From: Thermodesulfobacteriota bacterium
Lineage (GTDB): Bacteria > Desulfobacterota > Desulfobacteria > Desulfobacterales > C00003060
NCBI GenBank assembly: GCA_034189385.1
Contig: JAXHVD010000007.1
Location: 64,001-128,000 of the forward strand
Length of the DNA stretch: 64,000 nucleotides
Direction: 5' to 3'
Shown: positions 21,001 through 27,000 of the stretch, piece by piece
Layout of the letters: the number at the start of each line of letters is the position of its first letter
How positions within the stretch are numbered: position 1 is the first letter of the stretch
Program-made: the position numbers

Positions 21001-24000
21001 TCTTTGCACCTTCACAACCATAGATTCTGAGCCAACATCTCACTCCAAGTTGGCATGCTGGTCCAATAGGGGCCTAGGGTCACTGCCCTGCCTCTGGTAT
21101 AGCCCCAACACAATCGTCTCCAACAACACAAAGGCCGCTTGCTCAAAAAGAGACCCAGGGGGTTGTATCGATTTGAAATTTTTAGGATAATCCCTCTTTG
21201 ATCCCCCTGGAAGGAAGAGCCTGTAGTCCACCGCTCTTCCAATAGGGGAGTTTTCTACACCGACAACGCCGTAGGTTGAGGCCCCATTGCCGGAGGCCAA
21301 TCTAACCCACTGATAGGTCCATATCGTCTCGCCCGAACCGGAGCAAACAACGAGGACGTCTTCCTTCGTGATCCCCGGAGTGATGGTCTCGCCTACAAAG
21401 AAGGCCCCATATCCCAGATGCATGAGACGCATGCAGAAACAGCGCAGGACATATCCTGACCTTCCGTGGGCCGCGCAGAAGATCCTCTCTGCCCGGTCAA
21501 GCCCTTGTACAAAACGCCCAACCGATTCTTCTGACACCCCGACAAGGGTGGCTTCAGTTTCCTTTGTGACGGCCTCAATAAGACCTTTTATGTCCATGTT
21601 TTTTCACATGATGCCCTTGAACCGAATAAGCGAGTGCAGCCCCCGTAGGTTCTGCCTTGCGGCAGTGCTCTGCGTGCTGCGTGCTTAGCGAGCGTATAGT
21701 TAAAAAGATTACAACCTTACGGTGAACATTCCCCGTGGGTTCTGCCTGACGGCAGTGCTTCGCAGGCCACGGGGAGGGTTCAATTCAGAACCACGCCCCT
21801 TTAGCTCATATTCCCAGATGCAACCCCCAAGGGACTGAACCCAGCCGGTGACAAGTGCCAGATCGTTGCCGAGCATCACCTAAAGGGTCAAGGATTCGCC
21901 ATGACAGAGGTGTTCATTCCAGAATGAAGCAGGCATTTTGAGATTCTATTTCTTAAAAGACTATAGGAAAGTGGCCCAGGAGTCAATCGTATAGGGGGGG
22001 CACCAAGAAACTTGGCCTTGACTTTTTGTTGACATGTCTGTATTTTGCTCGCACTCTTTAAGGGGCCGAAACGTTTTGGGGGCCTTGAGGTGGAAGAAGA
22101 GATTAAGGAGGAGCAGTTTAGGCTATGTTCTAATGATCGGAATACATGAAGGCATCTGGAAAGGGGTCCCTTCAGATGCCTTTTCTGCTTTCTTAGATCG
22201 TGGCTGCTGTCTGAGCAAGGGGCTATGCGGATTCTTCTTATACATGCAGACAGATTTTCATTTCGGGTAACAGGTGAGACTTCTGTGGCGTTGCCGACGG
22301 AACTCGATAAGGCAAAATCGGAGGACGAAGTCGGTGAAGCCCTGGTGGTTTTTGTGGCTGCTGAAAAGGGCGATGAGACCAATATCGGTTCCGTCGTCGA
22401 CCAAGTCACAGAAGAGGTCTTTGGTCTAGCCTCACAGGTGGGCATAGAGACCCTGGTGATCTATCCCTATGCCCATCTTTCGAGTGCACTCAGCTCCCCC
22501 AGGGTGGCTGTGAAGCTCTTGGATGCCATCTGCGGGCGCATTGAGGGCCAGGATTCCTTCAAGGTGGTACGTGCCCCCTTTGGCTACTACAAAGCCTTTG
22601 AAATCTCGTGCAAGGGCCACCCATTGTCTGAGTTGGCAAAGACCATTACACCAGCCGGCCGCGCTGAGAAGCCATCTGGAGAGGGAGAGTCTCAAGCCAT
22701 TGTGGCAGAGAAGAGCCTTGAATCTGAATGGCGTGTCATGACCCCCGGTGGGGACCAAGTACCTGCAGAGGATTTTTCTTTTGCCAAGCGGCAGAATCTG
22801 GAGCGGCTGTTCAGGTACGAGAAATCTGGAACGCGCACCTCTGACCGGGTCCCCCCCCACATCGAGTTGATGCGCCGAATGGAACTGGTGGACTATGAGC
22901 CCGGCTCTGACCAGGGCAATTTCCGCTGGTATCCAAAAGGGCAGTTGATGAAGCGCCTGGCCGAGACGTATGTGTCTAATCTGGTCAGAGAGCTTGGGGG
23001 CATGCAGGTAGAAACGCCGATTATGTATGATTATCAGCACCCAAAACTCAACCTCTACCTTCAGCGGTTTCCGGCGCGACAGTACGTCCTCCTTTCAGGC
23101 GAAAAGGAGTATTTTCTACGCTTTGCGGCGTGCTTCGGACAGTATCTGATTCAGCACGATATGCAGATTTCTCACCATCACCTACCCAGCAAGCTTTATG
23201 AGTTGACCCATTATTCTTTCAGGAGGGAGCAGTCCGGGGAGCTGGCTGGGCTAAAACGTTTGCGCACGTTCACCATGCCAGACCTCCACACCTTGGCCAG
23301 GGACATGGAGCAGGCCAAGGAAGAATTTGCCCGTCAGGTGGATTCGGCCATTAAGTGCATGGAAGGCTTTGGCCTTGAATTCGAGGTGGCCATCAGGTGT
23401 GTTTCCGATTTTGGTGAACAGCACAGGTCTTTTCTGGAAGCAATTGTCTCACGATGTGAAAGGCCCGCCTTGATGGAGCTGTGGAATGAGCGCTTTTTCT
23501 ATTTTGTGACAAAACTCGAGTTCAATTTCATCGACGCCTTAGACAAGGCCGCTTGTCTGGCAACCGTGCAAATAGACGTTGAAAATCCACAGAGATTTGA
23601 CATAACCTATATTGATCATCAGGGTGAGAAACAGTATCCTCTGCTTCTACATGCTTCCATATCCGGGTCTATCGACAGGGTCCTTTATGCCATTTTGGAG
23701 ACCCAGGCGATGCGCATGAAGAGAGGACAAAAGGCCTCCTTTCCCTTTTGGCTGGCCCCAGTGCAGCTGCGCATCATTCCGGTCTCGGAGAAATTCGATG
23801 AGCCTTGCAGGAAAATATTGCCAGAGATTCCCTATCGCGTTGATTATGACGACCGCGATATCACCATGGGACGAAAAATAAGGGAGGCAGAGAAGGAATG
23901 GGTTCCCTATATCGTCGTCATAGGGGCAAAGGAAGTAGTTGAAGGGTGTATGAGTGTTCGAACCAGAGATGGTGTGCAGCGAAAGATGACCGTGTCTGAG

Positions 24001-27000
24001 CTCTTGGCTGAGATGGAACCCCAGCTGGAGGGAAAGCCATTCATGGGCCTTCCTTTGCCGCAAGAGCTTTCCAGGCGTCCCATATTTGTCGGTTAGGGTG
24101 GCAAAAAGGGTTGTCTGAACCTCTGGTTTTGTAGTAATGGCTTCTAGGCAATGGCATTCCATTGACGGCTGCCATCGACAGGTGACAGAAACGATTCACA
24201 AATAGCGATTCACGCATTCAAGGAGGTGAAGGGTATAGCCAAGCGCATTAATGTAAACCGAAGGATTCGGGCCAGAGAGGTACGGTTGATAGACGCTGAC
24301 GGTAAGCAACTGGGGGTTGTGCCACTGAGGCAGGCCTTGGAAACAGCAGAAGAGCGCGGACTTGACCTTGTTGAGGTTGCCCCTCATGTTAGCCCGCCGG
24401 TCTGTCGGGTCATGGATTATGGACGATACAAGTACCAACAAAGCAAGAAGCTCCAAGAGGCCAAGAAACGGCAGTCAGGTTATCAAATCAAGGAGATAAA
24501 GATCCGTCCCCTGACCGGGGAGCATGACGTACAGGTCAAGCTGCGCCATATAAGACGGTTCTTGGACCATCGGGACAAGGTGAAGGTTTCTCTTATGTTC
24601 AGGGGAAGGGAAATAGCCTACACTGAGCTTGGGACGGCCATTCTTAAACGAGTGGCTGAGGAAACGGCGGACATCGCCAATGTAGAACAGGAAATGAGAA
24701 GGGAAGGTCGCCACATTTTCATGGTTCTTGCCCCGAAATAACTCCCAGCAACCCTTCTTCTGATTCCAATAAGCAACGCAAATCATGGCAGAAGTTTGTT
24801 CAGCCCGGTTCGAGGCGGTGAGGGTCATGATGACATTCTGAGGGCCTATGCACCAAAGGCATCTCAGTACAAGCCCAAGCGTGTGAGACGCAAGGGCTAT
24901 ATTCTAGATAGCAGAGGAGAGGTACCATGCCAAAGATGAAGACAAACCGAGGGGCGGCCAAACGCTTCAAGACCACGGGGACGGGGAAAGTAGTCTATGC
25001 AAAGTCCCACGCAAACCACATTTTGACAAAGAAAACCAGGAAGAGGAAGCGGGCACTTCGAAAGTCCAATATCGTTGACAAGACCAATAAGGCCGCATTA
25101 AAACGCCTGATTCCATACGCATAATATGAAAAACACTGGTCGGAGGCTGGAGGGTTCTGAAGGCCTCTAAGGCAGTCACAGGGTGCACGACAGGAACTGC
25201 GACCAGGGATACAGGCCAGATGCATTGACCATTTACAAAAGAGAGATGACCAGATAGGGAGGATCACTCATGCGAGTCAAACGAGGATTTAAGGCAAGGC
25301 GGAGGCGGAAGAAGATATTGAAGCTGGCCAAGTCTTACCGAGGCGGCCGGAGTAAGCTTTATCGTACGGCAGCCGACGCAGTGGACAAGGCCCTGCAGTA
25401 TGCTTACAGGGATCGAAGGGCTCGGAAGCGAGATTTCAGGAGGCTTTGGATCGCCAGGATCAATGCAGGGGCGCGACTCAACAACCTGTCGTACAGTCGG
25501 CTCATCAGTGGATTGAAGCGGGCACATATAGAAATCGATAGAAAGATACTTGCCGAACTGGCTGTTTCAGATCCGAAGGCATTTTCTGAACTGGCCACTA
25601 TTGCTGTTGGCCCAGGCGCTTGAGTCTGGACGATAAATAGGCTCCATTATTTAGGCTATCGAGATTCTACTGTGAAGAAAAGACTCCAAGAATTGGAACA
25701 AGAAGCCTTGAAGGCCCTGAAGGCAGCCAATGACGTGGAAGGGCTAAAGGCATTACGGATTCAGTACCTGGGGCGCAAGGGGGCTGTGACCCAGTGTCTG
25801 CGCAAAATGTCCACTCTGCCGTCTGAAGAGAGGCCTGTCGTTGGGCAACTTGCCAATGAGGTGAAGGCAAGGCTTGAGGCGGTCTTCGAGCAATCCCTGA
25901 AAGGCCTGGAGGCAGAGCATGAAAGGCCTGAGGGGGCATTGGATGTGACGTTGCCTGGACGGCCTGCCGCTCGCGGGCGGCTCCATCCCATTACGCAAGT
26001 CACAGAGGCGATCTCCGGGATTTTCAGGGGGCTGGGTTTTGAGGTCGTGGAAGGTCCTGATGTGGAACTGGACTACTACAATTTTGAGGCCCTCAACATT
26101 CCAAAGGATCACCCCGCCCGCGACATGCAAGACACCTTTTATATCTCAGACAATATCGTATTGAGGACACACACCTCCCCGATCCAGGTTCGCGTCATGG
26201 AAAGGCAGCCGCCCCCCGTGCGGATCATTGCCCCTGGCAAGGCCTACCGCGTTGATTCGGATGTTTCACATACGCCCATGTTTCAACAGGTTGAGGGATT
26301 GATGGTGGACGAGAACATATCGTTGGGCAACCTCAAGGGGATTCTCACCACTTTTGTCCATCAGATGTTTGATGAGGAAACCAGCCTGCGCTTTCGTCCC
26401 AGCTTCTTCCCCTTCACGGAGCCGAGTGCCGAGATTGACATACGCTGTGTCATTTGTCGAGGAAAGGGCTGTCGGCTATGTTCCCATACCGGCTGGCTCG
26501 AGGTCCTAGGCGCCGGCATGGTGCACCCCGCTGTCTTTGAAATGGTAGGCTATGATACGGAGCGGTACACGGGCTTTGCCTTTGGAATGGGCATTGAACG
26601 CATCGCTATGCTCAAGTACGGCATTGAGGATATCAGGAAATTCTACGAAAATGATATGAGGTTCCTTGAACAGTTTTAGTTAGTGTCCATCCAGGAACGC
26701 CCTCCTCCAGACAATCTCAACGCTTCCTTTTGTGTATTTCTGAACCGAATAAGCGAGCGCATTCTCCACAGGAGAGCTACCGCAGGCCCCGCGGCTTTCC
26801 ACAGGGAGGGTTCAATATTTTTCTCCAATTTGGTTGGGGAAAGGGCTTCAAATCCTCAGGGTCACCCCAACTCTTTTGGAGATGATCCAGAAATGCTCAC
26901 TGTTTGATCTGCCGCGGCAGAGAGGTTTACCATTTTAGCTGACCGTCTCAGGGGCGCCTAAAATGGTCAAGGCGTGAGCAAACTTGACTTTTTACGAATC

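Follow-up and report, generated by a model that had tools for sequence, protein, structure and literature searches.

The question raised by the thrS gene of this bacterium of family C00003060 (Desulfobacterales) is how a threonyl-tRNA synthetase (ThrRS) of archaeal type came to stand at a bacterial gene position. In two phylogenetic papers, the rare form of the enzyme (ThrRS-R) has been treated as archaea-only, and its proposed origin in an extinct lineage was based on this. We found no report of a bacterial ThrRS-R in the open-licence papers searched. In this study, we analyzed a 64,000-nucleotide stretch of contig JAXHVD010000007.1 (the window) together with related genomes. The features of the locus are listed in Table 1.

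Table 1. Features of the thrS region, in window coordinates
Feature	Position	Strand	Evidence
Candidate sigma-70-like promoter of the thrS leader, TTGACT-17-TATTTT	22018..22046	+	9 of 12 consensus
Hairpin with U-run, terminator- or attenuator-like, putatively host-derived, 40 nt before the thrS start	22148..22184	+	Hairpin counts across loci
Threonyl-tRNA synthetase of the archaeal 'rare' form (ThrRS-R), 623 aa, the one ThrRS found	22225..24096	+	NF003068; profile and tblastn searches of the genome
Editing domain for Ser-tRNA(Thr) with the DTD fold, aa 1-141	22225..22647	+	PF08915, 149 bits; alignment to 2hl1/1y2q/4rrf
Class II catalytic core of ThrRS-R	23101..23703	+	PF00587, aa 293-493
ThrRS-R anticodon-binding domain	23764..24012	+	PF03129, aa 514-596
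infC (IF-3)	24226..24741	+	TIGR00168, 226 bits
rpmI (L35)	24927..25124	+	PF01632
rplT (L20)	25270..25623	+	PF00453
pheS	25672..26679	+	Profile search

The thrS reading frame was intact, with no internal stops. On the NCBIfam profile NF003068, the protein scored 782 bits (cut-off, 484) and covered profile positions 1-612 of 613; the highest score of any common ThrRS in the order sample was 250. By alignment, H84, Y122, K123, and E136 of the editing domain correspond to H83, Y120, K121, and E134 of Pyrococcus abyssi, residues whose roles are given in the excerpt of PMC4491819. A column comparison with four common ThrRS showed that the zinc ligands C303, H355, and H476 are present and aligned with those of the common enzymes, and that M351 and S478 are of the archaeal type. 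The TGS and SAD/N2 editing domains of common ThrRS gave no Pfam match in the protein. Its domain order, DTD-fold editing domain, zinc ligands, and C-terminal motif were the same as in archaeal ThrRS-R (NF003068/PRK03991; 2hl1, 1y2q, 4rrf); however, the host here is a bacterium, and the gene is part of a bacterial operon and follows a bacterial leader. The best archaeal matches, from Hydrothermarchaeota, were 49-58% identical. A chimeric protein was rejected, as 11 of 11 protein segments were closer to archaeal enzymes than to common ThrRS. Codon use was host-like: among 952 long ORFs, the gene ranked at the 40th percentile for GC3 and at the 68th for codon adaptation. At the level of sequence, the enzyme has the zinc site for selecting threonine, the DTD-fold domain for removing serine from tRNA-Thr, and the anticodon-binding domain. 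These results, with the PF08915 match and the trees described below, confirm the preliminary description of the gene as an archaeal-type ThrRS with a tRNA-Thr editing domain.

Searches for a second thrS in the genome agreed that there is none to be found, as had been claimed: TIGR00418 had three matches, one above the cut-off, tblastn gave one full match, and the sole tRNA_SAD match was an 879-aa frame read as AlaRS. This genome is 90% complete and all carrier genomes are incomplete bins, so the resident common thrS is to be read as 'not found'. Five additional family genomes, of which four are 97-98% complete, also had a single thrS each (5 of 5). The tblastn search also led to a second PF08915 protein, free-standing and elsewhere in the genome, which corrects the preliminary description. 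Further ThrRS-R were sought in Desulfobacterota and rejected: PF08915 was present in 35 of 301 genomes, but the long-frame matches examined were ED-CysRS and ED-SepRS fusions, and the remainder were short frames. As free-standing tRNA-Thr-ED proteins and ED-SepRS fusions, the archaeal editing fold has been described in bacteria, Desulfobacterota among them (Mukai et al. 2017, PMC5424206). The free-standing copy found here has Arg at the Glu135 position, as Fig S4 of that paper gives for some bacteria. A Magasanikbacteria 'threonine-tRNA ligase' carrying an ED domain is another entry in that figure. In the excerpt of that paper, the proteins either have no catalytic core of ThrRS or are not treated as complete ThrRS-R, and none is shown to displace a housekeeping thrS.

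ThrRS-R matched in 31 of 36 other genus genomes at 68-83% identity, which reproduces the earlier count; two of the 31 matches were frameshift-split pieces. Neither thrS nor infC was found in the five family genomes without a match, and therefore the locus is probably unassembled in them. The NF003068 cut-off was passed by 8 of 301 order-sample genomes, all of family C00003060, and by 0 of 293 genomes of other families. The swap can thus still be regarded as fixed in the family and absent from the other Desulfobacterales sampled.

On the same strand as ThrRS-R, the next genes are infC, rpmI, rplT, and pheS, which is the bacterial thrS position reported before. As also reported, infC lies beside ThrRS-R in most family loci (27 of 30; the other three end within 400 nt). 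The gene for pheT is on a different contig in this genome and follows pheS in many relatives. Compared with the common bacterial ThrRS of the thrS-infC-rpmI-rplT-pheS-pheT block, the position, flanking genes, zinc ligands, and presumed function are the same, but the family enzyme is ~28% identical over the core only (2-15% over residues 1-120) and is without the TGS/SAD (N2) editing domain. Adjacency to infC could not carry the claim of replacement in place, because infC adjoins common thrS in just 6 of 22 loci sampled from the order's other families and is apart from it in 16. In most other Desulfobacterales sampled, thrS lies away from infC, and five genomes were checked at both loci. Two basal sister families, f8 and f82, have pgsA, tRNA-Val(GAC), common thrS, infC, rpmI, rplT, pheS, and pheT. 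The loci L043, L058, and L064 have the entire upstream block and pheT in common with L201/L200. The tRNA-Val(GAC) gene is found 120-433 nt upstream of ThrRS-R in 14 of 31 named family loci and also upstream of common thrS in f8 and f82. In this genome, hxlB lies upstream of thrS; since tRNA-Val and pgsA sit on another contig, the argument from the 5' flank was taken from relatives. The ancestral block was reconstructed from f8, f82, and a host tree of 21 rows, in which f8 stood beside the family and f82 outside it (supports of 84/81 and 89/92 at the relevant forks). The ThrRS-R family flanks were not found at any sampled sister or archaeal locus. The Glassbacteria-like genomes have ThrRS-R as their sole ThrRS, beside infC in 0 of 12 loci. 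Flanks on both sides were kept between carriers of the old gene and carriers of the new one, one criterion of xenologous displacement in situ, the subject by its title of Omelchenko et al. 2003 (cited in PMC9839398). The proposal of replacement in place stands on firmer ground than before: it draws on f8 and f82, whose loci have both flanks in common with the family, and on the leader hairpin, which is also seen in f8, and not on thrS-infC adjacency.

The leader hairpin lies 15-45 nt ahead of the new start codon across loci and is also present in f8. It was found in 26 of 32 family loci, in 1 of 6 loci at which other families carry common thrS, in 0 of 11 Glassbacteria-like loci, and in 0 of 15 Hydrothermarchaeota loci. 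In an alignment of 13 selected copies, 99% of cells were paired, and two pairs had both sides changed. An Rfam search of 13 loci gave tRNAs and one sub-threshold match, and no T-box or leader family. A threonine-anticodon mimic in the loop, as in the E. coli-type thrS operator, was not supported: the loops vary and many are without an NGU triplet. The 5' arm of the hairpin recurred between infC and rpmI in 2 of 36 loci, which was taken as chance. The promoter pattern was weak on its own (4 sites vs 3.8 expected); a similar -35/-10 stretch was found in 9 of 12 aligned family leaders.

A FastTree analysis with six common ThrRS as the outgroup placed the family ThrRS-R inside the rare-form clade. 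In the IQ-TREE analysis, the family and Glassbacteria-like Gemmatimonadota formed one bacterial clade (100/100) nested within the archaeal clade (100/99), as the preliminary description had suggested from a grouping with Gemmatimonadales/Glassbacteria copies. The sister of the bacterial clade was a group containing Hydrothermarchaeota (98/88). The two bacterial groups were 58-64% identical. A donor on the Methanosarcinales side was rejected when the bacterial clade was joined with six Halobacteriota rows (p-AU 1.2e-5), a group that was picked after the tree was seen and in which the one named row is Methanosarcinaceae, not ANME. Because the stem of the bacterial clade is long (0.56), and the tree holds 52 of 280 candidate rows with no named Thermococci, Methanococci, or Methanobacteria, the donor would be placed as an archaeal neighbourhood and not as an identification.

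The best explanation overall, and a very probable one on these comparisons, is that the housekeeping ThrRS of the family is the archaeal rare form, put where common thrS had been. Comparison of the loci shows an end-to-end replacement of the common thrS coding sequence in the family ancestor, with the host upstream block (pgsA, tRNA-Val(GAC), and the leader hairpin) and the downstream infC-rpmI-rplT-pheS-pheT retained. The new gene would be expressed from the signals of the old one, and its product would charge and proofread the host U73 tRNA-Thr set. One transfer into bacteria may have come from an archaeon near Hydrothermarchaeota/Altiarchaeales, followed by a long stay in an unsampled lineage and then by passage, in either direction, between Glassbacteria-like Gemmatimonadota and the family. 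The most likely route would be that the new gene was inserted next to the resident thrS or on top of it, and that the resident was lost afterwards. Recombination via shared flanks would require a bacterial donor, and none was found among the sampled loci. A wider reading, with a small chance of being correct, treats ThrRS-R as a homeoallele of bacteria: one bacterial line of the archaeal enzyme would move between phyla in anoxic sediments and reach the thrS position from an unsampled bacterial donor, through recombination at the leader hairpin and infC, with the host hairpin as an attenuator, spread limited to U73 hosts, and escape from ThrRS inhibitors as the cause.

It had been proposed that the host tRNA-Thr already had the archaeal U73. 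The observation stands, since 3 of 3 tRNA-Thr genes in this genome end in U73-CCA, but as an explanation it is not supported. U73 occurred in 317 of 317 tRNA-Thr pattern matches across the order, with an A73 match in 0 of 151 order genomes, and in 39 of 41 matches of Gemmatimonadota, including genomes with the common enzyme. The pattern matched 0 of 5 archaeal genomes, probably because it requires an encoded CCA. N73 is variable in bacteria according to the excerpt of a review (PMC11295145). In both host groups, U73 is simply the background, and it is not an archaeal trait of family C00003060; therefore it does not explain the swap there; it may be permissive for the archaeal enzyme. A specific pre-adaptation through U73 would fit the excerpt of PMC11295145, in which the M. 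mazei editing domain hydrolyses archaeal Ser-tRNA-Thr only and N73 is suggested as the cause. However, the P. abyssi N-terminal editing domain deacylates E. coli Ser-tRNA-Thr (PMC4491819, excerpt), two reviews conflict over which archaeon requires U73 for charging (PMC11295145 vs PMC9976931, excerpts), and U73 is equally present in relatives with the common enzyme and does not discriminate. We consider this pre-adaptation unlikely.

Selection for escape from natural ThrRS inhibitors is improbable as the cause. Archaeal ThrRSs resist borrelidin and have Met in place of human Q460 and Ser in place of A592 (PMC4389257, excerpt), with which M351 and S478 align here, but such residues come with any ThrRS-R, neutral homeoallele replacement requires no inhibitor, and there is no sign of exposure in anoxic sediments. 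It is quite improbable that the archaeal gene landed elsewhere, the common thrS was lost, and the gene later moved beside infC. The Glassbacteria-like genomes show such a state, with thrS away from infC, and its departure from the infC block in most Desulfobacterales points to mobility in the order; however, the gene would have had to move again, precisely into the gap that separates the retained hairpin from infC, and no family locus with sufficient downstream DNA has ThrRS-R away from infC. Ancient retention, in which early bacteria had both forms and ThrRS-R was lost elsewhere, would account for one clade in two phyla, but the clade lies several supported nodes deep within archaeal ThrRS-R, its two groups are 58-64% identical, and it is carried by 8 of 301 and 11 of 121 of the genomes sampled, which makes this highly improbable. 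The chance of an assembly chimera or archaeal contamination is close to nil: every carrier examined is a metagenome bin, but there are 31 independent genomes, with bacterial neighbours on the same contigs and the host-like codon use.

Replacement in place by the archaeal form draws on known processes, synthetase transfer and in-situ displacement. As in homeoallele replacement (Andam and Gogarten, PMC3191353, excerpt), the resident gives way to a divergent gene with the same function, in the present case at a syntenic position. The published ThrRS replacements are among archaea, whereas the present case would cross domains and then, apparently, bacterial phyla. The archaeal-type TyrRS and TrpRS of CPR bacteria (PMC5370408, excerpt) likewise passed from archaea to bacteria, but there the tRNA identity is also archaeal; here the tRNA-Thr discriminator is the same as in relatives.

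These results suggest that an essential translation enzyme was exchanged across domains, at only ~28% identity and in a case dated by synteny, and they provide a natural test case for whether the archaeal editing domain needs U73. A deeply divergent core translation enzyme would be able to serve a bacterial cell, and with two dependent bacterial groups the range of the rare ThrRS extends to a second domain. The thrS gene would be unsafe as a marker in these sulfate reducers (Seep-SRB1c; PMC10553843, excerpt). A seafloor sulfate-reducing family thus appears to run on an enzyme so far described from archaea alone, in the exact place of the old gene.

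The archaeal 'rare' threonyl-tRNA synthetase (ThrRS-R) of this genome scored 782 bits against NF003068, the NCBIfam model of archaeal ThrRS (cut-off 484), and its residues 1-144 aligned with the editing-domain structures 2hl1, 1y2q, and 4rrf. Its zinc ligands, C303, H355, and H476, fall in the same alignment columns as in four common (ordinary bacterial) ThrRS. H84, Y122, K123, and E136 match the editing-pocket residues of P. abyssi named in the accessible text of PMC4491819, and M351 and S478 show the archaeal states at positions tied to borrelidin resistance in the accessible text of PMC4389257. 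A chimeric protein was ruled out, since each of the 11 windows along the sequence resembled archaeal enzymes more than common ones. The gene has host-typical GC3 and codon use and is followed by infC, rpmI, rplT, and pheS. In this genome (90% complete), TIGR00418 gave one match above the cut-off and tblastn one full match. These results bear out the preliminary description of an archaeal-type enzyme as the sole ThrRS.

Features of the ThrRS-R locus and of other editing-domain (ED) loci
Feature	Position	Strand	Remarks
ThrRS-R gene	window 22225-24096		623 aa; PF08915, PF00587, PF03129 (Pfam)
Leader hairpin	window 22148-22184		10-bp stem with U-run; upstream of thrS start
hxlB and fused hexulose-phosphate synthase/RraA gene	window 19715-21597	-	divergent, upstream; NF005442 582 bits vs cut-off 593
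Dispersed repeat copies	window 21618-21784 and 26741-26816		68 and 51 blastn matches in genome
Free-standing tRNA-Thr-ED protein, 135 aa	L111:5387-5791 (G000:C23, this genome)	-	PF08915 123 bits
ED fused to CysRS	L197:6587-8542	+	family f122, Desulfobacterota
SepCysS beside ED-SepRS fusion	L198:5341-10093, L199:170-2113	+	family f122

Family C00003060 comprises one genus with 37 genomes. In our reading it equates to Seep-SRB1c, which the accessible text of PMC10553843 describes as not yet found attached to ANME. ThrRS-R was found in 31 of the 36 other family genomes at 68-83% identity. The remaining five yielded neither thrS nor infC, which points to an unassembled locus, and each of five further family genomes has exactly one thrS. 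The NF003068 cut-off was passed by 8/301 genomes of the order, all from this family. Thus, the swap proved, as had been claimed, fixed in the family and absent elsewhere in the Desulfobacterales sample. PF08915, the editing domain, was found in 35/301 genomes of the phylum; besides ThrRS-R, its matches were short free-standing frames or, in f122, CysRS or SepRS fusions. The observation is real and well replicated. In two family genomes (L075, L077), the gene is split by a frameshift, probably through assembly errors in an essential gene.

The nearest relatives outside the family (60-62% identity) are records titled Glassbacteria (three), Gemmatimonadales (four), and 'archaeon' (one). ThrRS-R is the only thrS in 5/5 Glassbacteria-like genomes and lies away from infC there. 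NF003068 was passed by 11/121 Gemmatimonadota genomes; the non-carriers in this sample include the unpublished genomes G677 and G717. Removing near-copies reduced 280 candidate proteins to 99, and 52 entered a careful tree, which was built without named Thermococci, Methanococci, or Methanobacteria. The family and the Glassbacteria-like group were each monophyletic (100/100), and together they formed a single long-stemmed clade (100/100), in agreement with the grouping proposed earlier. This clade was sister to a group with named Hydrothermarchaeota (98/88), both inside a clade with Altiarchaeales (100/99). Its placement with six Halobacteriota rows was rejected (p-AU 1.2e-5). Title and content disagree in the L043/L055/L094 set: the 'Gammaproteobacteria' record L043 carries a family C00003060 gene block, a record titled 'archaeon' falls among the Glassbacteria-like loci, and a contig titled 'Acidoferrum' shows a 47% match, as in Bathyarchaeia records, and archaeal-looking neighbours.

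The archaeal gene was also said to have replaced the bacterial one in place. infC comes next after ThrRS-R in 27 of 30 family loci, and the other three stop within 400 nt. However, this adjacency proves little on its own, because infC lies beside common thrS in only 6/22 loci of other families; the two genes are apart in five core-order genomes. The in-place case rests on the sister families f8 and f82, whose blocks run tRNA-Val(GAC), common thrS, infC, rpmI, rplT, pheS, pheT. tRNA-Val(GAC) lies 120-433 nt upstream of ThrRS-R in 14/31 named family loci, and L043, L058, and L064 have pheT in common with f82, as well as pgsA and two or three more upstream genes. A host tree of infC, rpmI, rplT, and pheS (21 rows) placed f82 outside and f8 plus the core order sister to the family, with moderate support. 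The claim therefore stands through the f8/f82 blocks and shared flanks. Here, the pgsA block (on another contig) and pheT lie elsewhere and hxlB is upstream of thrS, as in 6/31 named family loci; these look like later rearrangements. The arrangement of hxlB with the hexulose-phosphate synthase/RraA gene recurs in the same number of loci. A dispersed repeat that may be a miniature mobile element is present at both sites at which the operon here lost ancestral neighbours. In most sampled core Desulfobacterales (L205-L214, L137-L151), thrS is separated from infC, unlike in the textbook operon.

The leader hairpin, which has no Rfam match, was present in 26/32 family loci, mostly 15-45 nt before the start codon, and in 1/6 outgroup loci (f8, between tRNA-Val and common thrS). 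It was not found in 11 Glassbacteria-like or 15 Hydrothermarchaeota loci. Across 13 hand-picked copies, 99% of alignment cells pair, and two pairs are altered on both sides. The hairpin is thus a host element, which places the 5' junction of the swap near the start codon. The hairpin may act as a terminator with read-through or as an attenuator.

The host tRNA-Thr was described as already having the archaeal discriminator, U73. All three tRNA-Thr genes here do carry U73. In the order, a tRNA-Thr pattern that requires encoded CCA, and so misses genes without it, gave 317 U73 matches in 137/151 genomes, no further G73 or C73 match, and no A73 match. In Gemmatimonadota, 39/41 matches of this pattern were U73 (22/61 genomes with matches), carriers of the common enzyme included. 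Thus, U73 is a background state. The discriminator of E. coli tRNA-Thr is A73. Reading of N73 by the archaeal editing domain is suggested in the accessible text of PMC11295145, and editing of E. coli tRNA-Thr is shown in that of PMC4491819; this literature is mixed. G633:C129 has two identical A73 tRNA-Thr(UGU) matches 26 kb apart, perhaps an integrated element; the genome's other tRNA-Thr are U73.

The 135-aa protein, of a known free-standing group (PMC5424206 Text S1), has Asn in place of Lys121 and Arg in place of Glu134, with a radical SAM gene directly downstream. Weak matches of this kind occur in 12/37 family genomes. In L197, ARAGORN places a tRNA-Cys (7014-7089) in the stretch that links ED to CysRS, within the open reading frame. 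The ED-SepRS frame of L198 has 1122 aa and its SepRS match is limited to aa 149-246, so it may be interrupted. P0122, P0123, P0125, P0215, P0230, and P0243 are ThrRS that carry added editing modules, either ED combined with a SAD or ProXp-like module or ED attached to a core of the common type; named members are from Micrarchaeota and Woesearchaeota.

The rare form is described as archaeal only in the accessible text of PMC3191353 and PMC4427996. As far as their text is accessible, Mukai et al. (PMC5424206) reported free-standing editing domains in bacteria and listed one CPR ThrRS with an editing domain, and PMC9839398 (citing Woese 2000) treats cross-domain synthetase transfer as well known. 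The literature, subscription papers aside, yielded no account of a complete ThrRS-R serving as a housekeeping enzyme in bacteria. Very probably, this is an enzyme of a known family that has entered a domain of life new to it, through a known process that left an unusually clean footprint.
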